From assembly GCA_964572255.1 (NCBI GenBank), contig CAZNEE010000001.1, positions 2,223-66,222 on the forward strand: 64,000 nucleotides of DNA, given 5' to 3'. The notes under the pieces were generated by a model. It saw only the letters and a program-made list of their open reading frames with translations. It was not told where the DNA came from and ran no database searches. The position numbers and the translations under genes are program-made. This document shows positions 3,061 to 64,000 of this stretch, piece after piece (position 1 is the first letter of the stretch; each line of letters opens with the position of its first letter). The stretch is from an uncultured Planctomycetia bacterium (GTDB lineage: Bacteria; Omnitrophota; Gorgyraeia; Tantalellales; Tantalellaceae).

Positions 3061-3160
3061 ATTGATGAAAGGAGGGGATTCAAAAAGTAAAGAACGATGG
3101 AATTGTAATGCAATTATATGCAAATAGTGAAAAATCTAAAAAGAAAGAGAGGTGAGTAAG

Positions 3161-3595
3161 ATGAAGAAAATTATGATATTAAGCGCTATATTGTTTTGTG
3201 TTTGTATCGTTGGCGTTAATCCCAGTTATGCGGGTTTAGATGTGTCAGAAACTTCACCCGGCACCTATACCTGGTTTTACACCGGGGTACCTCATGCTAA
3301 TGATTACCATATAAGAAGCGACGGGCTTTACGGCCCTACTCCTTCAGGTTGGTCACCTGACCCATCAGATGCTGATGGAGACCCCACTACAGACGATTGG
3401 TACTGGAGTGATCCAGGGGATTTTGATTTGAATGGGATGGGGGGAACTATTTCATATGCATCTTATACGCCATACATAAGAATCACACAAAATGGCGAGA
3501 CTATAGCTGAAAACCCTGAACCGGCAACCATGGCAATATTTGGTCTTGGCGGATTGGGTTTGGCGGTAAGAAGAAAATTTTTGCGTAAGGCGTGA
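3161..3595 (+). CDS. PEP-CTERM sorting-signal secreted protein
   Basis: N-terminal signal peptide; C-terminus '...PEPATMAIFGLGGLGLAVRRKF' = PEP motif + TM helix + basic tail; RBS AGAGAGG before ATG 3161 (ORF track starts at GTG 3152). Confidence 0.75.
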   Translation: MKKIMILSAILFCVCIVGVNPSYAGLDVSETSPGTYTWFYTGVPHANDYHIRSDGLYGPTPSGWSPDPSDADGDPTTDDWYWSDPGDFDLNGMGGTISYASYTPYIRITQNGETIAENPEPATMAIFGLGGLGLAVRRKFLRKA

Positions 3596-47100: not shown

Positions 47101-47269
47101 AGACGAGTTTTATGGTGAAGAGCAGCCTTCTATGGGTCCGGGAGGAGCGCCGATTCCATCCCAACCCGCGAAAGATGAAACATATAAAAGAGAAACCCCA
47201 AAAGTCGGGCGTAATGATCCCTGTCCTTGCGGCAGCGGCAAAAAGTATAAGAAATGTTGTGGTAGATGA
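44123..47269 (+). CDS. secA: Preprotein translocase ATPase SecA
   Basis: DEAD motor motifs, C-terminal zinc finger '[14 protein letters not shown]'. Confidence 0.95.
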
Positions 47270-48786
47270 GTAGAAGCAGAAAAAACATATTTTTAGTAAT
47301 TTTTTCAGGTATCCTCACGTTTTTAGCATTTCCGCCAGTAAAGTTAAGCTTTCTTGCATGGATCTCTCTGGTCCCGCTTTTTATAGTGATCAGGGATAAT
47401 AACAGGAAAAGTTCTTTCTGGTATTCTTACTTATCAGGGTTAGTCTTTTTCGGGTTATTAATATCGTGGCTTGTAAATGTTACCGTGCCTGGATCGATCA
47501 TTCTGGTGATTTTACTTGCTCTTTTTTACGGGTTATTCGGTCTTGCGGCAAGAATCGTGTTCAAATATTCCATGGACTTATTGATATTACCGTTTATCTG
47601 GGTGGTCCTGGAATATATTCGCAGCCATCTTCTTACGGGTTTTCCCTGGGGGCTCTTAGGATATTCACAGTATGCAAATATAAAAATTATACAAGTCGCC
47701 GATATTACCGGTGTTTATGGAATATCATTTATGCTGGTCATGTTCAATGTTGCCGTATATGCCGTTATAGTGAGATCTAAAAGAAAAATTTCCTACATGA
47801 TGAGCGCGCTGCTTTTTCTGATAGTTATCATTACATACGGCGTTTATAGACTGGATAATTTCAGCATATGGGGCAAACCGAGAATAAGTGTCATTCAGGG
47901 GAACATACCGCAGAAATTCAAATGGGATCCAGGGCACGCTAAGAATATTATAGAGAAATATGACGGGCTTACCAGGCAAGCGGCCGGCGATAAACCTGAT
48001 ATGATAGTTTGGCCTGAGACAGCGTATCCTTATCTTGTGGAAGAAGGCGCCGGTGCAGTTGAAATAGAAGAGCTTGCAAGAGATATAAATATTCCGATCC
48101 TTGCCGGGATCGTATATGAAGAAAAAGAAAATTTCTATAACAGCGCTTTCCTTTTTTCAAGCAGGGGCGCTCAAGAGAACATATACAACAAGATACATCT
48201 TGTACCGTTCGGGGAATATATACCTTTTGGGAAATACTTTTCTTTTTTAAGAGGCTACATCGATAAACCGATCGGTGATTTTACGGCTTCGGATGATTTC
48301 ACACTTTTTGTTCTAAGATCAACCGAATATTCTGAAGTACAAAAAGACGTTATAACGCACACGACTTTATTCTACAAATTCGGTGTTTTGATCTGTTTTG
48401 AGGATATCTTCCCTTATATCACGAGACGTTTTGTTTCAGAAGGCGCGAATATCATGATCAATATGACAAATGACGCATGGTTCGGCAATACCGCGGCGGC
48501 CGAGCAGCATTTGCAGGCTTCTGTTTTTAGAGCGGTAGAGAATCGGGTGCCTGTAATAAGGGCAGCCAATACGGGAGTTTCATGTTTCATTAACCCGACG
48601 GGCAAGATATTATCAAGAGTCGCTGACAATAACAAGGATATTTTTATAGAAGGATTCGCTACCGAAAACGTCCAAGTGACCAGTTTAAGATCGTTTTACA
48701 CCAAATACGGAGATGCTTTTGTGTATTTCTGCGCTTTCATGATGGTGATCTTGATCGCGACAGAATGGTTCCTGGTAAAAGAATAA
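47266..48786 (+). CDS. lnt: Apolipoprotein N-acyltransferase
   Basis: N-terminal 6-7 TM helices + CN-hydrolase domain ('VWPETA', 'ICFEDIF'). Confidence 0.85.
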
Positions 48787-50689: not shown

Positions 50690-51196
50690 ATGAAAAAAAG
50701 TCTTATAGCATGTTTACCCGCGTTTATTTGGGGAATTGCGATTTTTGTCTTTACGGTTCTACCGGCCTTTTTGGCATATACTCTATTGAAAATTTTTAAA
50801 GGGCATTTTAAGAGCATACTGGTCCATTTCCTTCCGTTATATAAGGACCATTTTTCGTGCGCATTTAAACATATCGACAAAGTAGCCCATTTTTCAGAAT
50901 ATACGATCCTGGCATTTCTTGTTGTTTGCGGGTTAAATTATGTACGCGGCATAACTATCAGGGCCAATCTATCAATTACATTATTTTTTGGTATCAGCTA
51001 CGGCCTTATTACTGAACACTTACAAAAATATATTCCCAGCAGGACCGCGAGTTTTGGGGACGCTATGGCAAATGTCGCGGGAGTGTTATTTGGCATAGTT
51101 TTAGGCTATTTGGTAATAGGGGTTATAAAATTAGTAAGTGGGAAATTTCGCAATTGTAGCCGGAAGCTTTTATCTCCTCAAACTTCCAGTATTTGA
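50690..51196 (+). CDS. VanZ-like family membrane protein
   Basis: 'IDKVAHFSEYTILAFL' VanZ-like motif, 4 TM helices. Confidence 0.5.
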   Translation: MKKSLIACLPAFIWGIAIFVFTVLPAFLAYTLLKIFKGHFKSILVHFLPLYKDHFSCAFKHIDKVAHFSEYTILAFLVVCGLNYVRGITIRANLSITLFFGISYGLITEHLQKYIPSRTASFGDAMANVAGVLFGIVLGYLVIGVIKLVSGKFRNCSRKLLSPQTSSI

Positions 51197-51203
51197 TCCC
51201 AAC

Positions 51204-52166
51204 TTAATGTCGCGGAGTTATTTTTTGTTTGAGTATATCTTTTTCAAAAATTAGATGTTTGTCTTTTGGATAAATCCATTCTTCATGGGGAAAAGAAGTC
51301 TTTATTTTTTCAACAGGCTCTCCCAGCGCAACGAGAACTTGTTGAGTATTCATGCCTTTTTTTACAACATGGAAGCGTATCAGGAATTTATAGAGTAAGG
51401 GCCAATTTTGAGGATCTTCAGTGATAAAATAGGTACCGAACCTGTTTTCATTATACCAACTTCCATCCGGGACATTCGTTCCGCTGAAATTTAGATCGAC
51501 AAAACCGATTTCTCCCCTGTCAGTTTGAACAATAAATCTAATGGGTCTTAAAGGATCCCAGCTGGCAACTACATCCATAACTTTTAAAGGAGTATATTTT
51601 CCGACAGATATAGTTTTTTCCTGGTCTTTTTCTTCATCATAAGAATAGATATATTTTCTCAAATACCAGAGGGTTTTTCCTATCCATTCTTTGCGGGCGT
51701 TTTCAATATCGGTAACTGAAACCAGCCCCTCTACAATCCCTTCTCTTGCCAAGATCTTATAAGTTTTTCCGTTATCATCCATTTTTAAGTAAACATCATA
51801 TATAATTTCCGCTGGATGGCCTGGAGGAGAAGGAGTTATTTTTTTATCTATTTTAGTTACCGTTCCGACCCTGCCGACACAATTTTTATAAATTGGATGA
51901 TAATCACGGCCAAATTCCGGATCATTGACTATCTCGATCATATCATCATATTTGTCGGTGTATATCAGGTCGCGTTTTCGTTTAGGATAAAAAACAAATT
52001 TATTCCCGATCCACGTTTCTATCGGACGGTATGAGTAGATATCTGCATAATAATCTTCTGGTTGCGCTTTTTGAGTGCCGATTGAGCCCTTTTTTACATA
52101 AGAATTGTCAGCGAAAGAAAAAATAGGCAAGGAAATAATTAAAAGTAGAATTATTAGTTTTTTCAT
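51204..52166 (-). CDS. Hypothetical secreted protein
   Basis: Signal peptide 'MKKLIILLLIISLPIFSFA'; no recognisable motif. Confidence 0.35.
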   Translation of the reverse strand: MKKLIILLLIISLPIFSFADNSYVKKGSIGTQKAQPEDYYADIYSYRPIETWIGNKFVFYPKRKRDLIYTDKYDDMIEIVNDPEFGRDYHPIYKNCVGRVGTVTKIDKKITPSPPGHPAEIIYDVYLKMDDNGKTYKILAREGIVEGLVSVTDIENARKEWIGKTLWYLRKYIYSYDEEKDQEKTISVGKYTPLKVMDVVASWDPLRPIRFIVQTDRGEIGFVDLNFSGTNVPDGSWYNENRFGTYFITEDPQNWPLLYKFLIRFHVVKKGMNTQQVLVALGEPVEKIKTSFPHEEWIYPKDKHLIFEKDILKQKITPRH

Positions 52167-52215
52167 ATGGTGAAATTTTAGAACTATTTATTGAATTTGT
52201 CAACATATATAAGGA

Positions 52216-53748
52216 TCATACCCATAAATTCCTGTCCAGGCACCTGTATCCGATAGCTTCGGAGATGTGGTGTGATTCGATCCTTTCCGATCCTTCCATG
52301 TCTGCGATTGTGCGTGAGATCTTCAGGATCTTATCATAAGCTCTGGCGCTGATCCCGAGTTCGAGTATAGCGGTTTTTAAAAGTTCTTCCGATTCTTTGG
52401 AGAGAATACAGTAGTTTTCTATTTCTTTCGAAGCCATGTATGCGTTATATGCGAGAGAAGATGTTCTATCTTTGAACCTTTCTTTTTGGATATTTCTGTT
52501 CCTGATCACACGTTCTTTAATTACAGAAGATTCTTCTCCGGTCCTTTTTCGGGAGAGCTGGTCATAATCCAGCCGAGGCACTTCAATGTGGATATCTATC
52601 CTGTCTAAAAGCGGACCTGATAATTTAGAGAGATACTTTTGTATTTGATGAGGGGAGCACTGGCAGTTTTTGTGCGGATCAGTAAAATATCCGCACGGAC
52701 AAGGGTTCATGGCCGCAATTAATATAAAACGGGAAGGGAACCTGGTCGATCGCTGCGTTCTGGTTACAGTTATTTCCCCGGCTTCAAGAGGCTGTCTTAG
52801 CGCTTCCAGTACATCACGGCGGTATTCCGGGAACTCATCAAGGAAAAGTACGCCGTTATGAGCAAGGCTTATTTCACCGGGCAAAGGATAGGAGCCGCCT
52901 CCCGCCATAGCTGCATAAGAGATCGTATGATGGGGAGAGCGAACGGGACGTTTAGTTATAAGATCATGGCTTTTAAGTTGGCCGGCTACGCTGTAAATAT
53001 TAGTCACTTCAAGCGCTTCGTCCGGCAGGAGATCGGGAAGGATAGTTGTGAATCTTTGCGCAAGCATACTCTTGCCTGATCCGGGAGGGCCTAAAAGAAG
53101 TATATTGTGTCCTCCGCTGGCCGCGACTTCAAGCCCGCGTTTGACATGTTCCTGGCCTTTGACATCTTTAAAATCCAAGTTTCCTTGAAGTTCGGTTGTA
53201 TTTACATCTTTTTGTTCTATTTTTACGGGATTAAGAGGTTTTATTCCTTTAAAATGCTCAACTACTTTTGCCAGGGAAGCCGCGCCGTATACGGTAAGCT
53301 TTTTTACGTTGGCTGCTTCAGGCGCATTATGTTTGGGCAGAATAAAGCTTTTGAATTTTTCTTTCAAAGCCAAAGCGATAGGCAGGGCGCCTCTGAAAGA
53401 TTTGAGTTTTCCGTTCAAGGAAAGTTCGCCGCAAAACAGAGACCCTTCAAGATCTTCCTCGTTTATAACGCCGGTCGCGCTAAGGATGCCGATCGCGATC
53501 GGAAGATCAAATCCGGCCCCTTCTTTTTTTATATTGGCGGGAGAGAGATTGACCGTTATTTTTCCCTGAGGGAAAGTATAACCCGAATTCTTTATAGCGG
53601 AACGGATACGTTCCCGGCTCTCCCTGATGGATGTGTCAGGCAGGCCGACTATCGCAAAAGAGGGAAGACCGTTCGAAACATCCACTTCGACGTCTACAGC
53701 ATATGCGCTAAGCCCCACAACACATGCCGAATTTACTTTAGATAACAT
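52216..53748 (-). CDS. comM: Mg-chelatase-like AAA+ ATPase YifB/ComM
   Basis: N-terminal ChlI/Lon-like domain 'GLPDTSIRESRERIRSAI', Walker A 'GPPGSGKSM', Mg-chelatase C-domain. Confidence 0.9.
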   Translation of the reverse strand: MLSKVNSACVVGLSAYAVDVEVDVSNGLPSFAIVGLPDTSIRESRERIRSAIKNSGYTFPQGKITVNLSPANIKKEGAGFDLPIAIGILSATGVINEEDLEGSLFCGELSLNGKLKSFRGALPIALALKEKFKSFILPKHNAPEAANVKKLTVYGAASLAKVVEHFKGIKPLNPVKIEQKDVNTTELQGNLDFKDVKGQEHVKRGLEVAASGGHNILLLGPPGSGKSMLAQRFTTILPDLLPDEALEVTNIYSVAGQLKSHDLITKRPVRSPHHTISYAAMAGGGSYPLPGEISLAHNGVLFLDEFPEYRRDVLEALRQPLEAGEITVTRTQRSTRFPSRFILIAAMNPCPCGYFTDPHKNCQCSPHQIQKYLSKLSGPLLDRIDIHIEVPRLDYDQLSRKRTGEESSVIKERVIRNRNIQKERFKDRTSSLAYNAYMASKEIENYCILSKESEELLKTAILELGISARAYDKILKISRTIADMEGSERIESHHISEAIGYRCLDRNLWV

Positions 53749-53760
53749 TATTGCTCCTTT

Positions 53761-54162
53761 TTAATTTTCTTCGATCTCAATAACGTTTGTTACATGATCA
53801 AGAACCTGAAGATTTTTATTGATATCAAGTTTAACGGAAACAGCGTCAATACGGCACGGCCTGTTAAAAATTCGGTGCCTTTTGATGTAATACTGGCAAT
53901 TTCTTATGATATGTTTTTGTTTTGTCCTGGTTATAGAGGAGAAGGGAGTACCGAATTTTTCGGAAATACGCGTTTTGACCTCCAGAAAAACAAGATATTT
54001 TCCATATGTAGATACTATATCTATCTCGCCGAAAGGCGTCCTGTAGTTCCTTCTTAATATTCTGAACCCTTTAGAGAACAAGTGCCTTTCGGCGAGTTTT
54101 TCCCCGTATTTACCTATACTATGCCTGAACAAGTTCTTCGCTTGTTTCTTCTTTTTTCTCAT
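53761..54162 (-). CDS. yraN: YraN-family (UPF0102) endonuclease-like protein
   Basis: 'GEIDIVSTYGKYLVFLEVKTR' YraN core; ATG 54162 would overlap spoVG 3' end by 44 nt (alternative TTG 54132); ORF track extends to 54327. Confidence 0.6.
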   Translation of the reverse strand: MRKKKKQAKNLFRHSIGKYGEKLAERHLFSKGFRILRRNYRTPFGEIDIVSTYGKYLVFLEVKTRISEKFGTPFSSITRTKQKHIIRNCQYYIKRHRIFNRPCRIDAVSVKLDINKNLQVLDHVTNVIEIEEN

Positions 54163-54415
54163 TGTATGCCTCAAGAACCAGTTCCTGCAGCCCTTTGTGC
54201 ATTTCTTTGGAAATAGTATAGAAGGTGGGGTACCACTTTCCATCCTTGCCTTGCTCTCTGGGCATCCCAAGGAAAAGACCGTCTTTACCCTCGACGACTT
54301 TAAGTCCTTTTGCGATGAACGTATCAAGTATCATTAGATCGCAAAAGGCTTTTGTCGGGCCATCCCCGTCCAAAAGGCGAATTTTCTCCACTCTGATGAT
54401 CGGTTTGTTACTCAT
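54119..54415 (-). CDS. spoVG: Septation protein SpoVG
   Basis: 'MSNKPIIRVEKIRLLDGDGPTKAFCD...' full-length SpoVG. Confidence 0.85.
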   Translation of the reverse strand: MSNKPIIRVEKIRLLDGDGPTKAFCDLMILDTFIAKGLKVVEGKDGLFLGMPREQGKDGKWYPTFYTISKEMHKGLQELVLEAYNEKKEETSEELVQA

Positions 54416-54535
54416 TTTTTCCTCCTTTTCAGTTTACGATTTGTTATGCATGATTTATTGCGGATCATGCACCCATGCATATATAGACAAGTTTTCGGAG
54501 AAAAAACTTTCATTTAGAACAAAAATAATGCGAAA

Positions 54536-54579
54536 CAAAAAGACCCTGACCACTTTTTCTAGTGATCAGGGCCTTTTTT
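54536..54579. terminator. Bidirectional intrinsic terminator downstream of minus-strand PEP-CTERM gene
   Basis: GACCCTGACCACT / AGTGATCAGGGCC imperfect stem flanked by A5 (left) and T6 (right). Confidence 0.45.
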
Positions 54580-54627
54580 ATGACCAAAATGAATATAAGC
54601 TTGTAAAGCTACTTCTAATTATTTTAT

Positions 54628-55323
54628 TTATTTTCTAAATCTTTTTATTGCAAACCCCAGTCCTGCTAACAGGAACGAGAACATAGTTGCGGGTTCGGGA
54701 ACAGGATCGGGATCTTCTGGCGGTGATTCCTGTTCAGCAGTTATAAGTTGTACCATATCACCGCTATCCATACCGGCGTCATATGTATTGTCATCTGGAT
54801 CAAAAGGATTATTTGCGTATTCAAAAAGAATTAGATCGGCATCGATGCCCCCCGGGGTTATGAGTGTCGCTGAACCGCCCGGAATGGATTCTGCCGGATT
54901 GGCCGGAGGCCAGGAAGGCGTGCCAAAGAAAACCCTATGGATTATATCGGGATCCATATCGTAATATAATATTTCCGTTGCATAAAAACTATAGGGAGTA
55001 CCCCAGACAGCCGGCCAAAAGGTCCAGACTGGTCCGCTTAATCCATCATCAGAACCAAGGCGCCAAGACCCGAAAGATCCCACAGAAGGATCCCACATTG
55101 GCGTAACAGAAACCTGTGCGCCATTATCCCAATCCCAATAAATATCCCCAGATTGGAGTGGGGCATTTATAGTAGTGTTTGCCGGAAGATCCCAGACATC
55201 AAATGGGGGTTCGGTGGTCTCTATTGCTACGTCACTGGTTATCGGCGCCGCCCCGGCGCTTTGCGCCATAAACAAAAGACCAGCCGCAATTACCGCAATT
55301 GCTATTAAACTTAAATTCTTCAC
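54628..55323 (-). CDS. PEP-CTERM sorting-signal secreted protein
   Basis: Signal peptide 'MKNLSLIAIAVIAAGLLFMAQSAGA'; C-terminus 'VPEPATMFSFLLAGLGFAIKRFRK'. Confidence 0.75.
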   Translation of the reverse strand: MKNLSLIAIAVIAAGLLFMAQSAGAAPITSDVAIETTEPPFDVWDLPANTTINAPLQSGDIYWDWDNGAQVSVTPMWDPSVGSFGSWRLGSDDGLSGPVWTFWPAVWGTPYSFYATEILYYDMDPDIIHRVFFGTPSWPPANPAESIPGGSATLITPGGIDADLILFEYANNPFDPDDNTYDAGMDSGDMVQLITAEQESPPEDPDPVPEPATMFSFLLAGLGFAIKRFRK

Positions 55324-55372
55324 TTTGGTCCTCCTTCTTGTTACTTTTTAAACTTCACATCTTTACTAAAAC

Positions 55373-55512
55373 AAAAAAACCCAACCATTGAAAGGTTGGG
55401 TCACAAAGATCCTCTTACACTTTTTACGATAGTGCAAATCGGCAACCGGCTGGGTCTCGCTTAATCTGCTAAACCCCCTGTGGTTTTGTGCCCCATTCTT
55501 GCAAATGGTTTA
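55373..55512 (-). promoter_or_regulatory. Paralogous structured leader RNA (candidate c-di-GMP-I/GEMM-like riboswitch + terminator), copy 2
   Basis: Reverse complement reads AAACCAUUUGCAAGAAUGGGGCACAAAACC...GCCGAU...ACCCAACCUUUCAAUGGUUGGGUUUUU; collinear with 2915..3060. Confidence 0.55.
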
Positions 55513-55562
55513 CTATTAGTATTGGTAAAAAGAGCATAATTGCTTACTTTACTATCTCTTAA

Positions 55563-55590
55563 AGTATACCACATGTTTTCCGAAAGTCAA
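55563..55590 (-). promoter_or_regulatory. Sigma70-like promoter TTGACT-N16-TATACT (minus strand) driving leader copy 2
   Basis: Reverse complement of 55585-55590 = TTGACT, of 55563-55568 = TATACT; overlaps 3' end of anti-sigma gene. Confidence 0.4.
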
Positions 55591-56018
55591 TTTTTTTTAG
55601 TAAGTTTTTTCGATTCGAAGTGGGAGAGGAGTCGGTTGGTTTTATCTTGGTCGCCGCTTTTCCAGGCCTCATGGATCATTACGAGCATCTTTGTTGTTCT
55701 TGCCTCGATTATCCATTTAGCGCCCATCAATAAGCACGCGACGAGGAATTGAAGAAAATATTTTGAAAAAATAAAAGAGCAGGCAAAAGTGATGATTGTT
55801 CCCAGGAGCCAGCGATTCTTTCTGATCCACCGAAAAATGCTTTCTTTCAGCTCAAAAATATCAGGTTGGCTTAATATCTCATGGGTCTCTGCCAGGAGCT
55901 TCCGGCATTTGTCGCATGAGGCAAGATGCTGTTCCACGCTTCTTTTTAGTCCATCTTCAAGCAGACCGTTCATATATTCGCTCAGGATTTCTTCTGTAGG
56001 GCATATGCGGCTGTTCAT
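55587..56018 (-). CDS. Anti-sigma factor with N-terminal zf-HC2 zinc finger and C-terminal TM anchor
   Basis: 'EQHLASCDKCRKLLAETHE' HxxxCxxC motif; immediately downstream of ECF sigma gene. Confidence 0.6.
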   Translation of the reverse strand: MNSRICPTEEILSEYMNGLLEDGLKRSVEQHLASCDKCRKLLAETHEILSQPDIFELKESIFRWIRKNRWLLGTIITFACSFIFSKYFLQFLVACLLMGAKWIIEARTTKMLVMIHEAWKSGDQDKTNRLLSHFESKKLTKKN

Positions 56019-56077
56019 GATCTATTCTCCTTTTTACATATATAGACAAATTTTTCAGTCAAAAACGTTCACCGATC

Positions 56078-56710
56078 TTAAAAAATATCAATATTTTCAC
56101 CAAAATATTGGTTTAGTCCCTCGCGCAGATTATGTTTTCCCCGGCGGATCAACGTCGAAACCGTATTCAGGGGTATATTCATTATTTCGGAGATATCCCG
56201 GTGCTTTTTATTTTCATAGATATTTAACTTTAAAACAAGCTGTTGTTTAGGGTTGAGCTTGGCAAGCTCCTTCTTGAAAGCTTCTCTGATCTCCGAAGAT
56301 TCGATCATCTTTTCAGTGTTAAGCTTTAAAGATGATAATTTTGATCCCAAGGTCAATTCAGGTTCTTCCCGGGAAAAGCTTTGATCCAAAGAGGCAGTAT
56401 TGTTTCGATTTTTTATCTCCTTTTTTGTGCAGTAATTCAAAGTCGCGTTAATTGAAACCATTACCAGCCAGCTTTTAAGGGAAGAGGGATGCTTTATTCC
56501 GGAAAGCCTGTTGTTGTTCCATATGGATAAAAATATCTCCTGAACAATATCCTGATATTCATATCTAACCGAACCCACGCTAAGCCTGTTTAACTTATAG
56601 TTGACGCTTCTAATTACAAGCCGTTCATAGCGCCGGATGAATTCTCCCCAGGCATTAGAGTCCCTTTGGGCGCATTTATTTATCAATTCTTTCGTAGAAA
56701 GATACCGCAT
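56078..56710 (-). CDS. RNA polymerase ECF-type sigma factor (sigma-70 region 2 + region 4)
   Basis: Region 2 'QDIVQEIFLSIWNN', region 4 HTH 'HRDISEIMNIPLNTVSTLIRRGKHNL'. Confidence 0.85.
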   Translation of the reverse strand: MRYLSTKELINKCAQRDSNAWGEFIRRYERLVIRSVNYKLNRLSVGSVRYEYQDIVQEIFLSIWNNNRLSGIKHPSSLKSWLVMVSINATLNYCTKKEIKNRNNTASLDQSFSREEPELTLGSKLSSLKLNTEKMIESSEIREAFKKELAKLNPKQQLVLKLNIYENKKHRDISEIMNIPLNTVSTLIRRGKHNLREGLNQYFGENIDIF

Positions 56711-56856
56711 AGGGACATTTTAATATAATTTTCGTATTTTATCAATTATTATTTGCATTTAATTAAAATTACAAGGCTATAGTTTTTAATGAAAAAAGGG
56801 CACAAGAAATTAAAATAAACACAAGTTAGCACATAAAAAAGCTAGCAAGATTTTAC

Positions 56857-56884
56857 TTGAATATACATACACTTATTGTATAAT
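56857..56884 (+). promoter_or_regulatory. Sigma70-like promoter TTGAAT-N16-TATAAT upstream of giant ORF
   Basis: TTGAAT 56857-56862, TATAAT 56879-56884, ~110 nt before ATG 56994. Confidence 0.4.
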
Positions 56885-56993
56885 ATATATATTCAAATAA
56901 AAGAATAAAAAGCAAGAAAAGCACTAAGTTATATGTGCTTTTAATTTTTGCAAAGAAAATTAAGAAATTTTAAAGTAAGATGGGGTTGGGAAA

Positions 56994-59900
56994 ATGATAA
57001 ACGCTTGGCAAAAAGACAATTCGTCCATAGTAAGCAAAAAGACACTAATAAGGGTCGTGGCGCTTATTACATTAGTGGCTTTTGTGCTTACTATGGATGG
57101 GGGTATTCTTACCGACATTGCGCACGCCTCGAACCTACCTTCAAATTCCGCGAATAGCTTCAACGCCCGATTGATCAAGTTGCCGGAATACCTTGGCCAC
57201 ATAAAAGAATCCCATAATACTTTTTCAGAAAGAATAGTTATTCACATTCAGGATGCCCACTGTAATTATGCCGCCCAAAAGAAAATTGCCGATATAATCC
57301 GATATCTCAATGATACATACGCGATAGACACCGCCAACCTGGAAGGAGGAAAAGGCAATTATGATCTTTCACCTTTTTCCGGTATTTCCGATAAGGCTGT
57401 TCGCGAAAAAATATCTGATCATTTTGTTAAGGAAGGGCTTATAAACGGAGCGGAGTATTTTGCCATAAATAGTCCAAATCAAGTAAAGCTGTGGGGGATA
57501 GAAGATGAAGGGCTTTATGTAAGAAATCTTAATGTATATCGGGATGCTATTAAGCATAAAAAAGAGGCTGATAAATATATAAATGAACTCGGGCAGGCAT
57601 TAACTGGCCTTAAACGCCATATTTATTCAGAGGAACTTTTAAAGCTGGATGGGGTCTATTCCGAGTTTAAAGAGCAGGAAATAGAGTTAAGGGATTATCT
57701 CGCATATCTATTCAATAAAGCTGATGAAAGATCCATCGATATCAAGGCATTCCCGAATTTGTACCTGTTAAATCAGGCGATCAGGGAAGAAAGAAAGATA
57801 GATTTTGAAAAGGCCGATAAAGAAAGGACCCGTCTTATAAATAGATTGGAGAACAAGCTCTCCAGATACGATATTGAGGAACTCCTCTTAAAAATGGTCG
57901 AATTTAAAGAAGAGAGGATAACACAGGATAGTTTTTACAGATACCTTGCAAGAAAAGCAAGGCTGGCCAATATCAGCCTGGAGGGATCTCCCGAACTCAG
58001 GAAATATATCATATATGTATCCATATATAATTCTTTGGATGAAATTACACTATATGAAGAGATAGAAGCCCTTGAGGGAAAGATCCAACAGTCTTTGTGT
58101 GAGAACGAGACCCAACTTGAGCTATATGAACTTTCAAGGAACTTTGCTTTAACGAAAAACATTCTGGATTTTTCAATAACAAGCAACGATTACAGGTATT
58201 ACAAGGATAATCAAAAGCTTTTTAAGGTCAAAAATTATATATCATTTATAGGAAAATACTCACCGCGATATAAAATTACCGCAAAAGTTGATAATAATTT
58301 ACGGGATCTTGATCGTTATCGTGATGAAGCCATAAAGTTCTATGAATATTCATTCGAAAGGGACAAGGCATTTATAAAAAATCTTAAATGGTCGCAAGCA
58401 AAAGACCAGGGCCGGCAAATCACTATCCTTATAACAGGCGGTTTCCACTCGGAGAACCTTACCGGTCTTTTAAAAGAGAAAGGGATCTCTTTCATCTCGA
58501 TAGCGCCGAACTTTAAATGCGAGGAGGGGTACGAATCGCCTTACTTTGATCTTTTAAGCGGCGGCAAAGGCTCTCTGGTAAAGCTTATCGAGACAAGCAC
58601 TTCGGGCCTTGCGATGCATAGTTTGCTTTCAGAGATGGAAGTTATCGATATAGATAAGGAAGGCATTAAGCGGGCCATAGAAGTCCTTGAAGCATTAGAA
58701 AAAGAAGGGAGCATCACTCTTCCCGCCAGGTACGGATCTGTTACATTTTCACGCGAAGCCATAAGCGACCTCTCAGAGGAAAAGAAAAGGATGAACGGAT
58801 ACACGGTCTATGTGACCAGGGAAGATATCCAAAGAGAGGGTTCATCTGAAGGCAAAGAAGATAAACGGGCATTACAGGCAATTGAAAAAGATCACATTGC
58901 AAAAAGAATTATAAACCGCACCTTTGGTAATGCCAGGGCTGTTTCTGGATTGTTCCACCCGTTAAGCTTGATTTTACTGCTTACTGCACCAAGTCTTTTT
59001 GTGACAAAAATTGCTTTCTGGATTCTTATAAGCGCCACGTCACTATTTATAACAAAAGAGATATTACATTATTTCGGATTATTGGATAGAGATAAAACAA
59101 AGTCTCCCGCCTGGTTTGATAAACTTTCATTTGATTTTGCGAAAAAAGGCATGGTTCTCGGGATGGTCTTTTTGGGGTTTATGGCTTTTTATTTTATTGT
59201 ATCTCCCGGCTCTATTATCCCGAATTATATGACCTGGTCGAACTTGATCTCGGGTAGAAATCCGATATGGGATATTATTTTTACTGGAGGAGTATTTGGT
59301 CTTTTCATTTTACCGCTTCAATTATTTGTATCCGGGATGAGTGAGGGCATAAGTGGTTTATTTAAGGAAGCCATTACAGATCGTCTCCCTTTCAGGGAGA
59401 AAAAAAGATCTTCCTGGCACAGCGAAGAGGAAGCTGCGTATTTATTGATTTGTTATGCACCGATCCTTGAAGAATCGGCACGATTTATTAATATATGGGC
59501 GTATTTATATGGAGCTTTATATGTTTTAGGGTTAAGTACACAGTCATCCATTTTATTCGCGATTGTGGCGTCATCTCTTCATTTTTGGGCAACTCATTGC
59601 TCTCATAAAAGTCTCGCGACTTTACTTGAAGGGGTATTTTTAGGCGTTTTGACGGTTTTTATCAATAACCCTATTGTTAATTATGCCAGCCATTTTTGGC
59701 ATAACGTTTTTTATGGTGGAGCTTCATCTGCACTTTCAAGAGATGGCGAAGAACAGGGAAAACCAAAGTCATCTCCCGATGAAACCAGCGTTGAAGTTGA
59801 AAAGGTTCAGGATCCGACAGCGGATATGATCGAAGCCATAATCGAGCTCCATAAGGCGAATGATCAGATGGAACGCATATCCGAAGAGGAACTCACGCAG

Positions 59901-62900
59901 CACCTTAAGAACCCTGAAAGTATTATTTTCATCGCAAAAGATGCAAAAACAGAAAAAGTCGTAGGATGTTTCTTTGGTGTGCCTCAGATATATGTCCCGG
60001 GGACCGTATATTTAGAAAGGCCTGATACAGTCAGGATCAAGAACCAGACGTTTTATGAAGTGTCAGGACAGGTGCTTCCGAATTACCAGGGTAAAGGGAT
60101 AGGCACTGCCTTAAGGCGGGAATTAAGGGACGAAGTTAGATATACAGGCAGATTCCAATACATCGCCTGTCATCAGTACAAGTCATTCGATGAGCTTAAG
60201 CTGATAAAAGAGCTTAAAAAATACGGCCAGGGCGATAAGTTGCACATAGCCATAAATACCAGCCCCCAATATATCGTAATAAAGCTTAACCCTGCGGATA
60301 AAGACAACAAACCTGCACCGACCTTAAAAAAGAAAATCCGTCGTTTTCTGGTCATTTTAGTGATGTTCTTTACGCTTGGCTATTATGCGCTTACCAGCGG
60401 GATATTATCTAATGTTAACGGTTCGAGGCAGGTTGTTCATATTTTAAAAGCGGCTGTCACCTGGGTTCTTCCTTCCGGTGATGAAAATCCGCAGGAGAGA
60501 GAAAATATTGATGGCAACATGATCGAGGAGTCAGAAGCTAGTGTTACCGCAGAACCTATCATTGCCCACAAAGAAGAGTATGGTATTGAAGTTGGAGAAG
60601 AAAAGGAAGCAGGCGGTAAAGATGCAGGCAAGACCGCCGGGCTTAAGAAACACACATTGAAGAAAATGTTCAAAACTGTCTTGCGCAAAAGCCTATCAGC
60701 CTTAAAATGGCTGGCCTGTGTAGTTTTGATAGGAAGCACGCCCAAAGATGAGATGCTTTTTAATCCGTCGGAAGAGACATACGATATATGGCGTGAAAAT
60801 GAAGCAGATCCTTCTCTTTTGAAGCAAAAATCTTCGGAAGTCGATGATAGGTTGACTCTTGCCCCGCTTTTACAGAAAAAAACGGCAGCAGACCTCAGGA
60901 AAGAAATCCATAAAAAATTGGTAAGAAAACGATTTCCTTCTAGAATTATTAATTGGATCTTTCCCTACGCAAAGAAACAGTTTTCAGAAAAATTATACAG
61001 ATCATTAAATAGCTTAAAAGATGCCCATGTTTATAAAATTCATCTTTTGTTGGAGTTTTTAAGTAAAGAGGAAAACGTAAGATCGATCCTGGCGGAATTA
61101 AAGCAAGCCGCAAAAGATGAAAAAGAGGCAGGAGGAGTTTTCAGGTTTACGGACGGAAAAGTAGAATTTTGCCCGTATCCGGCATCCAAATATTTGGGCA
61201 ACAAATATCACATGGTCGGAATAAAAGATTTTGATTACAAGGATCTGTTGTTCGGGTTTCATTCACATCCTCCTGCAGCTTTTGGCTGGGGGCCCAGCCA
61301 AGCCGATGTTGATATGTCTTTTATTTCAGACACATCACAAATCCTGTTTTATACCGACGGACTATCTTCCGGCCGGTTCAGTGTGATATTTTTCCAGGCA
61401 TATAACATAGATGGAGAATTTTCCGACTACATAAACATCCATTTAGGCAACTATTCATATTCAAGAAAGCCCGATTCTTTGTCAGAAGAAACGATAGCTT
61501 TTCTTGATTCTTTTCCTAGAAGAGGGAAGCCTCTCACCCCCAGTTCCAATATAGGCAATCTTGCCCGCATGGTAAGCAAAAAAGGCAGTATCGCAACCAT
61601 AGAAAATTCAGAAGGAGAATTGCACGAAGTTAAGCTGGAGTATCATGGCAAGTTGAACGTAAAACGCATTAAGAGAGAGTTTGATTTTGCAGATTATGTA
61701 TGGGGCGGAAAGAAAGAACTTCTTTTTATGTTCCTGGATCTGGTCGAACCTCTGAAACCAAGCATATATTATTTTGATGGCAGTGCAGAGAAAATCGAAG
61801 ACCTTTCGGCTTTTTCATCTTTTGAGTACGGTCTTTTAGCTTTTCATCCGAATTTGGCATCTAATTTACTTGCTCAATTGCATGAAATAGGGCATTACCT
61901 GATAGATTACAGGGAAGGCAATGCGAAGAAGGGACTGTTGGACCTTAAATATAAGAGAACGGACGAAGAGGAATTTATTATAGTCAGGGCGAGAGAGACT
62001 GTTTCAGATAAATTGAAAGTGATAAGAAAGATACATCTTTCCCCGGATACTTCATGGTATATCCAAAATGAAGATTGGCCGGAGGGGTGGGAAGAAGATC
62101 CCCATTATCTTTTAAGGGTACTTTTCAGGGAGATCTTTGATGAGGTCGATCAAGACCTGACCGAGGACATAAAGTACTTGTTACAGGCAAGAAAGATAAA
62201 CTCTGAAACCGGTAATAAAAAAGGAACTTCCGGCAAAACCACTTTACGCATGGGCGGCATGGGCATAGCAGCGCCTTTTGCGGCGCATTTGGCCGGGCTG
62301 ATCTCGCTTCCTGTGGCTTTTCAGCTCATATTCGCAATTACAATAATATCCCTTGTTTCGATGATACTCAGTCAGATGACCGCTTTTGATGATTCTAAGC
62401 TTTGTGATGTAAATGACGAGGCACGGGAAAACCGGAAAAAAGAATATATATCCAAAAAAGCCATCAATGAACTTAAAGCGAATTATGGGCTCCTGCCCAA
62501 AGAGCACAAGTTATCACAATATATCAAGGATCTCTTAAGGGAAATTTACCCCGAACTCAGTGACGAAGAACTGCCAAAAGTAGAGGTACTTGCGTCCAGA
62601 GGTTACGGTGTAAATGCCATGGTTTTCCCGAATAATACCATCGTTATTACTCCGGAACTTCTCGAGTTCGCCGAATACAAGGAAGAGCTGATCCATATCC
62701 TTTTTCATGAGATCGTGCATATGGACAGGGAACATTTTAAGCGTGACAAAAATGCCGGATCGATCCGGGAACTCCTTGGACTAATGAGATACGATGAGTA
62801 CGAGGCTGACATGGCGGCTTTTCGCATGCTCCAGGACAAGGGCTTTAATCCTCAAGGCGCCATATCCATGATGAAAAAGTTTAGAGATGCTTTCGGTAAA

Positions 62901-64000
62901 TATAGATTAGAGAGGGAGCTTAATGTCGTACACGGGGAAGAAACAGACCGTCTTCTTAACATGGAAAGCCTTACGTATCTGGAAGATTATAAGGACCTTT
63001 CATTTTCATTGACACCGCTTCCGAAAGAAGTTTGGAAAGGCGCCTCTAGAGATGGTTTTATAAGAAGCGGGAACAGAAGGGATCTTATATTGAATGATTC
63101 GTACCCGATAGAAGATCGCATGAGGTTGATATTCCAGGCAGATCAGTATCTCCTGCAGGAGATTCTGGGAGAGCTTTGCGGCAAGATAATATTAAGCGAG
63201 AGTGAGCTCCGCAAGCTCGGCAGGGACGAAGATGACATGACTTCTGCAATAGCGGTGCAATTATCGGAACAAAGGATGCTTCTTAAGAAAGCGATCGAAC
63301 GGCTAAAAGAGATATTAGAGGAGAAGACCAGCGGAGAAAATGCGAAAGTTTTAAACTTTACCATTGTGAGCTTGATCTTCGGAGTCCCTTTTGACGTTTC
63401 CCCCGAAACATTAAGAAGCGGATATTTCCGGGATATCAAGGGGGATTTCTATGAACAATTAGACAGTGACCCGGAGGCCGTAATAGAGTCGATCGAAAGA
63501 TTGCTTACAAACGGCGTGATGGAGAAATTAGATCTTGTAATAGACGGTAATACGCTCAGCAGTTTTTTAATAGGATTATCTCAAGCGGCGGCGGAAAGAG
63601 GCTTGTACGATAAAGACGAAGGCTTTGATTTTAAAATGTACCTTAAAAATTCATTCAGGCTTCTTGAGGGCGGAGCTTTTTATGCCGGAAGAGAGGGCAT
63701 GGGAGACTGTGGCTGCAGCTGCTGCGGCGGTGTATTTAATAAATCTGTAATATGGACACGCATTGTCTTTAGAGGGCTATGGGAGATCTTCGACCTGGGA
63801 CAGGTTGAAGAGGGCATATTTGAGGAGGACAATTTATTTCATTATTTTAAGGAGGTAAATGAGTATAAAGGTTCTGCACAGGTAAATCGTGAATTACTGA
63901 CATCTTTTGCCTCCTCCAGCAGGGAAGTTGATATTAAAAAAATGGATTCTGAGATCAAAAGAGTCGGGCTATTCAGGAAAGACATCGAGGAAGAAAACGA
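56994..64000 (+). CDS. Giant multidomain membrane protein (3' partial; at least 2335 codons, continues beyond window) - not in supplied ORF track
   Basis: Manual translation from ATG 56994 (in-frame TAA at 56976-56978 upstream) reaches window end with no stop; contains TM segments, TraB/Tiki/ChaN-like motifs, GNAT-like 'QGKGIGTAL', JAMM-like 'HSHP..S..D', 'HEIGH', M48-type 'HEIVH...EYEAD', Cys cluster 'GDCGCSCCGG'. Confidence 0.8.
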   Translation, partial: MINAWQKDNSSIVSKKTLIRVVALITLVAFVLTMDGGILTDIAHASNLPSNSANSFNARLIKLPEYLGHIKESHNTFSERIVIHIQDAHCNYAAQKKIADIIRYLNDTYAIDTANLEGGKGNYDLSPFSGISDKAVREKISDHFVKEGLINGAEYFAINSPNQVKLWGIEDEGLYVRNLNVYRDAIKHKKEADKYINELGQALTGLKRHIYSEELLKLDGVYSEFKEQEIELRDYLAYLFNKADERSIDIKAFPNLYLLNQAIREERKIDFEKADKERTRLINRLENKLSRYDIEELLLKMVEFKEERITQDSFYRYLARKARLANISLEGSPELRKYIIYVSIYNSLDEITLYEEIEALEGKIQQSLCENETQLELYELSRNFALTKNILDFSITSNDYRYYKDNQKLFKVKNYISFIGKYSPRYKITAKVDNNLRDLDRYRDEAIKFYEYSFERDKAFIKNLKWSQAKDQGRQITILITGGFHSENLTGLLKEKGISFISIAPNFKCEEGYESPYFDLLSGGKGSLVKLIETSTSGLAMHSLLSEMEVIDIDKEGIKRAIEVLEALEKEGSITLPARYGSVTFSREAISDLSEEKKRMNGYTVYVTREDIQREGSSEGKEDKRALQAIEKDHIAKRIINRTFGNARAVSGLFHPLSLILLLTAPSLFVTKIAFWILISATSLFITKEILHYFGLLDRDKTKSPAWFDKLSFDFAKKGMVLGMVFLGFMAFYFIVSPGSIIPNYMTWSNLISGRNPIWDIIFTGGVFGLFILPLQLFVSGMSEGISGLFKEAITDRLPFREKKRSSWHSEEEAAYLLICYAPILEESARFINIWAYLYGALYVLGLSTQSSILFAIVASSLHFWATHCSHKSLATLLEGVFLGVLTVFINNPIVNYASHFWHNVFYGGASSALSRDGEEQGKPKSSPDETSVEVEKVQDPTADMIEAIIELHKANDQMERISEEELTQHLKNPESIIFIAKDAKTEKVVGCFFGVPQIYVPGTVYLERPDTVRIKNQTFYEVSGQVLPNYQGKGIGTALRRELRDEVRYTGRFQYIACHQYKSFDELKLIKELKKYGQGDKLHIAINTSPQYIVIKLNPADKDNKPAPTLKKKIRRFLVILVMFFTLGYYALTSGILSNVNGSRQVVHILKAAVTWVLPSGDENPQERENIDGNMIEESEASVTAEPIIAHKEEYGIEVGEEKEAGGKDAGKTAGLKKHTLKKMFKTVLRKSLSALKWLACVVLIGSTPKDEMLFNPSEETYDIWRENEADPSLLKQKSSEVDDRLTLAPLLQKKTAADLRKEIHKKLVRKRFPSRIINWIFPYAKKQFSEKLYRSLNSLKDAHVYKIHLLLEFLSKEENVRSILAELKQAAKDEKEAGGVFRFTDGKVEFCPYPASKYLGNKYHMVGIKDFDYKDLLFGFHSHPPAAFGWGPSQADVDMSFISDTSQILFYTDGLSSGRFSVIFFQAYNIDGEFSDYINIHLGNYSYSRKPDSLSEETIAFLDSFPRRGKPLTPSSNIGNLARMVSKKGSIATIENSEGELHEVKLEYHGKLNVKRIKREFDFADYVWGGKKELLFMFLDLVEPLKPSIYYFDGSAEKIEDLSAFSSFEYGLLAFHPNLASNLLAQLHEIGHYLIDYREGNAKKGLLDLKYKRTDEEEFIIVRARETVSDKLKVIRKIHLSPDTSWYIQNEDWPEGWEEDPHYLLRVLFREIFDEVDQDLTEDIKYLLQARKINSETGNKKGTSGKTTLRMGGMGIAAPFAAHLAGLISLPVAFQLIFAITIISLVSMILSQMTAFDDSKLCDVNDEARENRKKEYISKKAINELKANYGLLPKEHKLSQYIKDLLREIYPELSDEELPKVEVLASRGYGVNAMVFPNNTIVITPELLEFAEYKEELIHILFHEIVHMDREHFKRDKNAGSIRELLGLMRYDEYEADMAAFRMLQDKGFNPQGAISMMKKFRDAFGKYRLERELNVVHGEETDRLLNMESLTYLEDYKDLSFSLTPLPKEVWKGASRDGFIRSGNRRDLILNDSYPIEDRMRLIFQADQYLLQEILGELCGKIILSESELRKLGRDEDDMTSAIAVQLSEQRMLLKKAIERLKEILEEKTSGENAKVLNFTIVSLIFGVPFDVSPETLRSGYFRDIKGDFYEQLDSDPEAVIESIERLLTNGVMEKLDLVIDGNTLSSFLIGLSQAAAERGLYDKDEGFDFKMYLKNSFRLLEGGAFYAGREGMGDCGCSCCGGVFNKSVIWTRIVFRGLWEIFDLGQVEEGIFEEDNLFHYFKEVNEYKGSAQVNRELLTSFASSSREVDIKKMDSEIKRVGLFRKDIEEEN

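Follow-up and report, generated by a model that had tools for sequence, protein, structure and literature searches.

The last 7 kb of the window, by which we mean the whole 64,000-nucleotide stretch of DNA analysed, raises the question of whether a reading frame that never closes is a real gene and, if it is, what so long a protein might do. Translation of the + strand from the ATG at 56994 to the window end at 64000 gives 2,335 sense codons and zero stops. The upstream in-frame stop is TAA at 56976–56978, as the first-pass annotation had reported, and no ATG, GTG or TTG lies between this stop and the ATG. Because the per-codon stop frequency at ~40% GC is about 0.063, the calculated probability of 2,335 codons without a stop by chance is roughly 1e-66. 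The same annotation had taken the frame to be incomplete and absent from its ORF track for want of a stop codon, and both points hold: the gene is missing because ORFs that leave the end of the source are not listed, and extension beyond the window, which had been proposed as a check, keeps the frame open. The extension comes from an independently assembled JGI metagenome contig (L081) with 99.7% identity over window positions 50907–64000. The residues 1–2335 encoded by L081 are identical to those of the window protein, with one synonymous difference in 7 kb, its frame is open up to residue 3,239 at least, and the gene call on it is 5,798 residues. Since this near-identical contig carries the same gene called at that length, the gene is not an assembly artefact. 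The window holds the 5′ 40% of a real 17.4-kb gene of 5,798 codons from an Omnitrophota bacterium, an origin assigned because the homologs of the N-terminal domain (the head) come from Omnitrophota. That separate genes were joined in one frame through misassembly or lost stops is scarcely credible: close homologs of the region after the head (the cargo) are nearly absent and long MAG ORFs are sometimes chimeric, but besides L081 and the improbability of such a frame by chance, the neighbouring gene is present on 7 contigs with sizes up to 0.5 Mb, and the plan of a head followed by long cargo is repeated in hundreds of family members. The final 56 nt of this DNA stretch have no exact match in the genome-contig or metagenome-contig collections, and are present in L081. 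Within the window part of the protein there is neither a second copy of the head nor an internal repeat.

The features of the gene and of the spacer before it are as follows.

56857..56884, + strand: candidate sigma-70-like −35/−10 pair TTGAAT-N16-TATAAT (10/12 consensus matches)
56994..64000, + strand: 5′ part of the gene, codons 1–2,335 of 5,798, continuing past the window (translation and L081 contig)
57042..57131, + strand: N-terminal signal peptide or signal anchor, aa 17–46 (positive n-region, hydrophobic core, A-H-A|S site)
57171..58673, + strand: conserved head, aa ~60–560, with a TIKI/Ere/ChaN/TraB-fold alpha/beta core (homolog alignment)
57243..57269, + strand: head motif HIQDAHCNY, aa 84–92, with D87 (at least 90% conserved) and H89 (invariant)
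57336..57350, + strand: head motif NLEGG, aa 115–119, with invariant E117, 28 residues past H89
58359..58448, + strand: head segment from R456-D457 to TGGFH (aa 481–485), H485 being 29 residues past R456
58944..59735, + strand: polytopic membrane block, aa ~651–914, 6–8 hydrophobic helices (hydropathy), an orphan
59748..60317, + strand: GNAT acetyltransferase-like domain, aa ~919–1108 (PF00583, QGKGIG motif, relatives)
60336..60392, + strand: single TM helix, aa 1115–1133, with KKKIRR just before it (hydropathy)
60804..61475, + strand: JAMM/MPN+-like domain, aa ~1271–1494 (E1378, H1423-x-H1425, S1435-x-x-D1438)
61527..62213, + strand: recurrent domain, aa ~1512–1740, possibly zincin-like (H1630-E1631-x-x-H1634, H1704-Y-x-x-R1708, conserved Asp near aa 1719)
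62247..62378, + strand: hydrophobic stretch, aa ~1752–1795, one long TM helix or a TM hairpin (hydropathy)
62520..62891, + strand: M48 zinc metallopeptidase domain, aa ~1843–1966 (H1905-E-I-V-H1909, third ligand in E1935-Y-E-A-D)
62892..64000, + strand: region without detectable relatives, aa 1967–2335 (homology and profile searches)

All of the motif peptides quoted in the first-pass annotation are found in the translation, and hydropathy peaks concur with its TM regions. Two of its motif positions are off by one, the GNAT motif lying at 1032–1044 (not 1031–1043) and the Cys cluster GDCGCSCCGG at aa 2237–2246 (nt 63702–63731; not 2238–2247).

The head follows a signal segment of a kind present in 89 of 102 family members, with a median n-region charge of +3 and AxA in 71. 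It has the parallel beta-sheet core fold that membership of the TIKI/Ere/ChaN/TraB superfamily demands, interrupted by an all-helical insertion of ~290 aa (aa 172–462), and the residues of its catalytic set come after strands 80–87, 113–116 and 475–482. The 2His/2Glu catalytic set of the superfamily is matched, with Asp (D87) substituting for the first Glu. D87 and H89 correspond to E3900-x-H3902 of RRSP; the H89 to E117 gap of 28 is the same as that from H3902 to E3930 in RRSP and from H85 to E113 in Bcr135, and the distance of 29 from R456 to H485 is that from R4001 to H4030 in RRSP. The likeness to TraB, Tiki, ChaN and erythromycin esterase that had been pointed out earlier is therefore borne out by fold core and catalytic set, but not by a model match, as Pfam and NCBIfam models gave nothing for the head at E <= 10. 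A PDB profile search with the head also found nothing. Compared with TIKI, TraB-PrgY, erythromycin esterase, ChaN, RRSP and HopBA1, the head differs in being undetected by these models, in having its core split by the helical insertion, in carrying Asp for the first Glu in most family members, and in being joined to thousands of variable cargo residues. From sequence, we infer that the head acts as a hydrolase exposed at the outer side of the membrane, with peptidase or esterase activity the most probable. ChaN, its best match, binds haem and is no enzyme, which counts against a hydrolase. The head could be pictured as a non-catalytic binding or assembly module, which would bind haem or another ligand as ChaN does, or serve as a scaffold, and whose conserved residues are structural or metal-binding. 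We consider this quite improbable, as H89, E117, R456 and H485 are invariant across 31 diverse head sequences and are spaced as the catalytically validated residues of RRSP and Bcr135.

Searches with the head return 413 significant protein clusters. In each of the 120 that were listed, the alignment is confined to aa 1–~560 of the window protein and falls at the N-terminus of the matched protein. Homologous long ORFs in Omnitrophota and PVC genomes, which the first-pass annotation had suggested looking for, are plentiful: at least 397 head loci are confirmed among genome representatives. The best 80 of these are all titled Omnitrophota or PVC-placeholder MAGs, the phylum singled out in the earlier remark that giant multi-hydrolase genes mark a few candidate phyla, and at least 14 assemblies supply 2–3 loci each among these 80. 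Paralogs within one genome have the head alone in common, their cargo being wholly different. The ~520-aa exported head thus apparently defines, on the evidence of these alignments, a multi-paralog family restricted to Omnitrophota.

The cargo is far less conserved. Word-indexed homology searches with aa 601–2335 and aa 1796–2335 gave no match, and cargo relatives came from an exhaustive HMMER search alone. The membrane block has no Pfam or NCBIfam match and no homolog. It contains CPBP/Abi-like motifs (EESAR 826–830, FWATH 864–868, HFWHN 900–904), of which FWATH and HFWHN fit the EExxxR/FxxxH/HxxxN set and EESAR is one residue short; the likeness to CPBP/Abi intramembrane proteases is retained as a putative motif resemblance only. 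The GNAT assignment is borderline but supported: PF00583 scores 18.8 bits with the whole protein, below the gathering cutoff of 20.7. A 250-aa tile reaches 22.9 bits, and relatives show 41–49% identity. Motif A of GNAT enzymes, Q/R-x-x-G-x-G/A, forms the acetyl-CoA pyrophosphate loop and is matched by Q1032-G-K-G-I-G1037.

The JAMM/MPN+ assignment made from the sequence has no direct Pfam or NCBIfam match and is supported instead through a homolog, P0146 (E 1.7e-11, aa 1271–1474), which in its aligned part scores 28 bits against the Prok-JAB PF14464 cutoff of 25. E1378, H1423, H1425, S1435 and D1438 are kept in P0146 and P0150, with Ser replaced by Gly in P0174. Relative to the JAMM motif E...HxHx7SxxD, the window protein has a 9-residue spacer instead of 7. 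A PDB profile search of this region was uninformative, the profile being inflated by a full-length row.

The HEIGH sequence noted in the first pass belongs to a real conserved domain of ~230 aa, characterized by HExx[E/H]…HYxxR, which occurs in up to four copies in other giant proteins and is hitherto undescribed. The H and E are invariant among the copies, while the fifth position is E in 78% and H in 22%, the window protein included; most copies are thus HExxE. A third ligand might be provided by H1704 or by the Asp near aa 1719. Pfam and NCBIfam models do not directly recognise the domain and a PDB profile search was uninformative. Its structural match to zincins is weak, the best being to minigluzincins (proabylysin, projannalysin, selecase) and the M48/M56 catalytic core, with which it has in common a beta-strand followed by the HExxH-bearing helix; the domain may be zincin-like. 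As a delimiter of modules beside TM helices it was rejected, since a TM helix lies within 80 aa in only 2 of 69 copies, which does not exceed the random level. For the hydrophobic stretch at aa 1752–1795 that follows, the sides conflict under positive-inside reasoning, which also fails to converge with reasoning from parity.

The M48 signature recognised earlier is confirmed, as PF01435 scores 37.3 bits with the whole protein and 43.9 bits with a tile (gathering cutoff 20.3), and H1905-E-I-V-H1909 and E1935-Y-E-A-D align to HEISH and E-Q-E-A-D of BepA, the best PDB sequence match. The domain shares with the M48 peptidases BepA, HtpX and Ste24 the HExxH motif, the downstream E-x-EAD Glu and an above-threshold Pfam score. 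In contrast to BepA, it is a ~125-aa core inside a giant protein and has no TPR domain (15.6 bits with the NCBIfam BepA equivalog against 570), and it is without the membrane architecture of Ste24 and HtpX. Past the window, an ABC1/UbiB kinase-like domain (PF03109, 51.2 bits against 22.9) lies at aa ~3043–3233 of the L081 extension. ABC1 is also among the precomputed domain matches of the 5,798-aa gene call, where only M48 and ABC1 are recorded. The order head, M48, ABC1 is seen in six further family members.

On balance, we think that the protein is probably a membrane-threaded multi-enzyme of the Omnitrophota head family, with a signal or anchor, a hydrolase-type head and variable cargo. The sequences show that the gene is real, that it belongs to this family, which domains it encodes and that the catalytic residues are conserved; how the protein works is inferred. 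A Sec-type signal or anchor leads, followed by the exported head, a TIKI/erythromycin-esterase/ChaN/TraB-fold hydrolase domain retaining the His/acid/Glu/His set and the Arg, and then by long cargo specific to each member. The cargo here runs from the polytopic membrane block through GNAT, a TM helix, the JAMM-type and HExx[E/H] domains, a membrane crossing, M48 and the stretch without relatives to ABC1/UbiB, and the protein would thread the cytoplasmic membrane. The cofactor-dependent modules, GNAT (acetyl-CoA) and ABC1 (ATP), would then lie on the cytoplasmic side, and the three or four metalloprotease-like modules may cleave proteins of the envelope or cell surface, or else the very chain that carries them. 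As a picture of the whole family, a purely inner-membrane polyenzyme fits poorly, because 42 of the 102 members lack any TM segment beyond the head, yet ATP- or SAM-type domains occur in the family.

With the N-terminal signal as their only such segment, those 42 members would be expected to be exported whole, which favors an alternative modelled on MARTX and other polymorphic toxins. The protein would be a polymorphic effector or polyprotein, its head an export and/or self-processing module, and its cargo (acetyltransferase, DUB-like JAMM, zincins, kinase) would be freed and would target a host or prey cell from outside or from within. A constant N-terminus with unrelated C-termini, same-genome paralogs included, is consistent with this, as are the effector-typical patatin, kinase, deaminase, metallophosphatase and GNAT domains of the family cargo and the use of the TIKI fold by the secreted toxin effectors RRSP and HopBA1. 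Omnitrophota have moreover been proposed as episymbionts or predators, and their giant proteins rise upon host attachment. We nevertheless regard this alternative as unlikely for the window protein, whose ~10 additional hydrophobic helices give it a membrane-resident look. Enzymes of the ABC1/UbiB and M48 types usually have housekeeping roles at membranes, no immunity-like or secretion-system genes adjoin the gene within the window, and cleavage sites are not known. MARTX and polymorphic toxins do share a constant N-terminal part and swappable enzymatic modules, and MARTX includes the TIKI-fold RRSP; the window protein, in contrast, is polytopic and lacks RTX repeats, a CPD and any known trafficking domain. 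A bolder proposal, which we hold to be a long shot, takes the TIKI-fold head as the hallmark of a polymorphic system peculiar to the phylum. Dozens of enzyme polyproteins would be exported via one N-terminal export/self-processing module, and the recurrent HExx[E/H] domains would process the chain internally as proteases, releasing cargo enzymes such as the acetyltransferase, the DUB-like protease and the kinase onto the surface or into the interior of host or prey cells. If true, this would be a new effector-delivery architecture behind an episymbiotic or predatory lifestyle.

Returning to the multi-enzyme reading, giant membrane-anchored proteins of this kind, GNAT and peptidase modules included, are already documented in Omnitrophota (Seymour 2023, PMC10066038; West-Roberts 2023, bioRxiv 10.1101/2023.11.21.568195; Nielsen & Lui 2026, bioRxiv 10.64898/2026.06.07.730766), so the combination of GNAT, JAMM and M48 on one membrane-anchored chain, described as unusual in the first pass, is unusual only in detail. 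Such giant ORFs share with ours the phylum, a very long frame, multiple TM helices, many unrelated enzyme domains and near-unique cargo sequence. At 5,798 aa (17.4 kb), however, our protein is too short for those catalogues, which start at >20 kb and >=10 kaa, and the SecA_DEAD, dockerin and C39/S8 domains of Omnitrophota giant proteins are not found in aa 1–3239. We rejected an Archaeovorin/Dockerin-type giant protein (West-Roberts 2023; >10,000 aa with SecA_DEAD, dockerin or C39) on its length and these absences.

Giant proteins are the hallmark peculiarity of Omnitrophota, and published accounts describe them as weakly conserved and for the most part without annotation. The texts of the three reports make no mention of a conserved TIKI/Ere-fold N-terminal head or a recurrent HExx[E/H] domain. 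A conserved, exported and apparently catalytic head common to hundreds of otherwise unrelated long proteins makes experiments practicable, as a single domain can be expressed, assayed, localised and mutated, and also offers a route to classify long Omnitrophota proteins. The HExx[E/H]…HYxxR domain is a second building block, curatable as a new family, that may inform whether giant proteins get processed. The gene itself gains a checked annotation, with TIKI-like head, membrane block, GNAT, JAMM, HExxH domain, M48 and ABC1.

A conserved operon context was rejected, as 0 of 10 window neighbours (SecA, Lnt, ECF sigma, anti-sigma, PEP-CTERM and others) recur near head genes in 80 loci. The sigma70 promoter proposed upstream is present as a sequence, but promoter-like sites in the spacer are not enriched (9 found against 6.6 ± 2.8 in shuffles). 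The pair sits in a 283-bp AT-rich spacer, with a divergent ECF sigma gene on its other side.

The giant ORF comprises 2,335 sense codons with zero stops on the + strand from 56994 to 64000, preceded by an in-frame TAA (56976-56978) and with no alternative start between this stop and ATG 56994. By our calculation, the chance of a stop-free run this long is ~1e-66 at ~40% GC. The first-pass annotation had read the frame as open to the end of the window and had ascribed its absence from the ORF track to the lack of a stop within it; both points hold, as ORF lists leave out any frame that extends beyond the source. Seven public contigs encode a protein identical to that of the divergent neighbor, an ECF sigma factor (56078-56710, −); one of these, L081 (JGI metagenome 3300017963, Ga0180437_10002687, 27.7 kb), was compared with the window. 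L081 and window 50907-64000 show 36 mismatches in 13,094 nt, of which only one, synonymous and at site 61547, falls inside the 7-kb segment of the giant ORF; residues 1-2335 are encoded identically. The L081 frame stays open past the window through residue 3,239, the end of the L081 stretch examined, and the collection's gene call is 5,798 residues long, with Pfam hits to M48 and ABC1. Therefore, the ORF is incomplete, as had been proposed, and the window holds 40% of a 17.4-kb gene. Proteins of the window are found in NCBI, JGI, ENA, and Logan, on contigs of up to 526,890 bp, and misassembly is a very unlikely source of the giant ORF. Sixteen of the 36 differences from L081 cluster in 67 nt (52426-52492) inside a ComM/Mg-chelatase-like gene (52216-53748, −), and another nine lie within 51037-51249, which looks like local recombination or a hypervariable patch between strains.

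The first-pass annotation suggested looking for homologous giant ORFs in Omnitrophota/PVC genomes. Searching with all 2,335 residues, we obtained significant matches to 413 protein clusters; the top 120 are Omnitrophota proteins of 1,300-4,055 aa (E 1e-164 to 1e-136), each covering just 20-29% of the query. The part common to these 120 is aa ~1-560, always N-terminal in the matched protein; none of them matches aa 650-2335 at E ≤ 1e-3, and the sequence following this head, the cargo, had no match in the word-indexed database when searched alone (aa 601-2335; aa 1796-2335). The head is encoded at 397 loci in a contig set with one genome per species. By title, all of the best 80 come from Omnitrophota or from "uncultured Planctomycetia" placeholder MAGs, with at least 14 assemblies supplying 2-3 loci each, and six loci contain two head genes. 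Same-genome paralogs have the head alone in common (42-55% identity). Complete family ORFs span 823-3,561 aa, and many others exceed 3,900 aa and run past the flanks examined. Members differ widely in their precomputed Pfam domains (M48+ABC1, TPR, HATPase, metallophosphatase, PEP-utilizers, protein kinases, methyltransferases, cNMP-binding, M50, patatin, GNAT). The head-only similarity and this diversity argue that the family plan is a conserved head plus unrelated cargo. Of the family members, only P0036 and P0061 share the linker after the head (aa 561-621, nt 58674-58856; E 1e-4 to 1e-5), a hint of a sub-lineage within the family.

The head goes undetected by Pfam, NCBIfam, and PDB sequence models. 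Invariant positions in a 31-sequence head alignment include Q86, A88, H89, N91, Y92, E117-G-G, E154, E170, R456-D457, and T481-G-G-F-H485. The AlphaFold2 model built on this alignment is confident (pLDDT 84, pTM 0.74) and contains the following elements:

aa 12-46, N-terminal helix
aa 68-87, 113-123, 165-169, 475-482, and 499-505, strands of an α/β core
aa 172-462, all-helical insertion of ~290 aa

In RRSP, a characterized member of the TIKI superfamily, the catalytic 2His/2Glu set consists of E3900, H3902, E3930, and H4030, plus R4001, and H85/E113 is the equivalent pair in Bcr135 (PMC6254334). The head reproduces the RRSP pattern with D87-x-H89, E117, R456, and H485. Its H-to-E spacing of 28 residues is the same as in RRSP and Bcr135, its R-to-H spacing of 29 the same as in RRSP, and each putative catalytic residue directly follows a core strand in the model. 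On the basis of pattern, spacing, and placement, we take the head to be a divergent, probably active TIKI-superfamily hydrolase; the likeness to TraB/Tiki/ChaN/erythromycin esterase noted in the first-pass annotation stands at the level of residues and predicted fold, though not of direct sequence matches. The N-terminal TM helix noted there is also seen and resembles a Sec signal or anchor: its n-region is positive, its core is hydrophobic, and an A-H-A|S site is present. Among 102 intact family N-termini, 89 have a hydrophobic segment and 71 have AxA, with a median net charge of +3. The head is therefore predicted to be extracytoplasmic. One member, P0008, is labeled 'twin-arginine translocation signal domain-containing protein' by NCBI, and some members may use Tat instead of Sec.

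Three regions of the cargo resemble metallopeptidases. The proposed M48 zinc peptidase is well supported: PF01435 (cutoff 20.3) scores 37.3 bits for the whole protein and 43.9 bits for a tile, and the best PDB sequence match of the region is BepA (E 1e-5), in an alignment spanning HEIVH (1905-1909) and the third-ligand segment E-Y-E-A-D (1935-1939). The JAMM/MPN+-like region has no direct model match, and its likeness is supported through a homolog. For aa ~1271-1494, an exhaustive HMMER search matches three proteins (P0146, P0150, P0174); the aligned region of P0146, which has a canonical HxHx7SxxD, passes Pfam Prok-JAB (28 bits vs 25), and the alignment keeps E1378, H1423-x-H1425, and S1435-x-x-D1438. 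The 'HEIGH' at 1630-1634 lies inside a recurrent conserved domain (aa ~1512-1740), with 78 copies in 50 proteins of the local pool and up to four per protein, as at about 2269, 3824, 5729, and 7384 in P0121 (7,703 aa). H1630 and E1631 are invariant, but position 1634 is E in 78% of copies and H in 22% (HExx[E/H]); conservation is ~96% for HYxxR (H1704, R1708) and for an Asp near aa 1719. The domain matches no Pfam or NCBIfam model and is taken here as undescribed and possibly zincin-derived. The TIKI-like head is present in only 3 of 58 representatives, making the HEIGH domain a building block across different giant-protein families. Three to four copies each occur in P0121-P0125, P0139, P0142, and P0165 (giants of 2,600-7,700 aa). 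An association with TM helices was considered and rejected, as only 2 of 69 copies have a TM segment within 80 aa, no more than random; some multi-copy giants have an N-terminal TM segment only.

The GNAT assignment is borderline, at 22.9 bits as a tile but 18.8 for the whole protein (cutoff 20.7); QGKGIG is present, and other long proteins contain relatives with 41-49% identity. All peptide motifs quoted in the first-pass annotation exist, although two lie one residue away from the positions given. Its polytopic membrane block is evident as 6-8 hydrophobic helices (aa ~651-914) with CPBP-like FxxxH and HxxxN motifs, and has neither Pfam/NCBIfam support nor homologs in the exhaustive HMMER search. 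Regions aa 1134-1270 and 1967-2335, the latter including the Cys cluster, are without detectable relatives. Beyond the window, an ABC1/UbiB kinase-like domain (about aa 3043-3233) scores 51.2 bits (cutoff 22.9). Head, M48, and ABC1 occur together in six other family members, with ABC1 far downstream of the head in the four whose ABC1 region is detected by BLAST; ABC1 identity is just ~22%, vs 42-51% for the head.

The domain order is thus signal, TIKI-like head, polytopic block, GNAT, TM, JAMM, HExxH domain, hydrophobic stretch, and M48, then about 1,080 aa without Pfam or NCBIfam match, ABC1, and about 2,560 further aa. The signal argues for an outward-facing head; the cofactor needs of GNAT (acetyl-CoA) and ABC1 (ATP) argue for a cytoplasmic location of these two modules. 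Which side the JAMM, HExxH, and M48 modules occupy would follow from the number of membrane crossings, one or two, made by aa 1752-1795. We favor, with moderate confidence, a membrane-threaded multi-enzyme in which the exported head would be a hydrolase and several metalloprotease modules would act on envelope or surface proteins, or on the giant protein itself, the substrate and role being weakly inferred. In the main rival reading, the family would follow the logic of polymorphic effectors or polyproteins, as suggested by the contrast between head and cargo, the effector-like cargo types, the 42 of 102 family members without a further TM segment, and the host-associated lifestyle proposed for Omnitrophota.

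Giant genes with several hydrolase domains had been called characteristic of a few candidate phyla, notably Omnitrophota, and the phenomenon is already known: sparsely annotated ORFs >20 kb have been recorded throughout Omnitrophota (PMC10066038), and Archaeovorin and Dockerin types with SecA_DEAD, C39, or S8 domains have been described among proteins >10 kaa (West-Roberts 2023, bioRxiv 10.1101/2023.11.21.568195). A 2026 preprint (Nielsen & Lui, bioRxiv 10.64898/2026.06.07.730766) catalogs 916 proteins of ≥10 kaa, 94% with TM helices or a signal peptide, and finds 80% of sequence clusters to be singletons in a wider set of 5,761 such proteins. It already defines "multi-enzyme" classes with modules that include GNAT and peptidases, so the combination flagged in the first-pass annotation is unusual in detail only. 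The present gene falls just below the size cut-offs of these catalogs, and these descriptions mention neither the conserved TIKI/Ere-fold head nor the HExx[E/H] domain.

The surroundings of the giant gene include the following features:

56078-56710, −, ECF sigma factor, divergent from the giant gene across a 283-bp AT-rich spacer
55587-56018, −, zf-HC2 anti-sigma factor, upstream of the giant gene
55438-55524, −, c-di-GMP-I riboswitch aptamer (Rfam RF01051)
2908-2994, +, c-di-GMP-I riboswitch aptamer (Rfam RF01051)
54628-55323, −, PEP-CTERM-motif protein gene, 231 aa, with riboswitch 55438-55524 directly upstream

The proposed sigma70 site TTGAAT-N16-TATAAT exists at 56857-56884, but promoter-like sites, present on both strands of the spacer, are not enriched (9 vs 6.6 ± 2.8 in shuffles), leaving it a candidate promoter only. 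In 80 other loci, neither the ECF/anti-sigma pairing nor any other window neighbor is conserved beside head genes. Both aptamers score 50-51 bits (gathering score 35). The placement of the one at 55438-55524 points to a sorted surface protein, encoded beside the giant gene, being under c-di-GMP control; giant genes have been linked to PilZ and GGDEF before (bioRxiv 10.1101/2023.11.21.568195). Finally, ~10 kb upstream (44123-48786, +) lie a canonical full-length SecA (1,048 aa, all five SecA Pfam domains) and the apolipoprotein N-acyltransferase Lnt. Standard Sec export, which bears on export of the head, and a diderm-type lipoprotein pathway are thus present in this organism.
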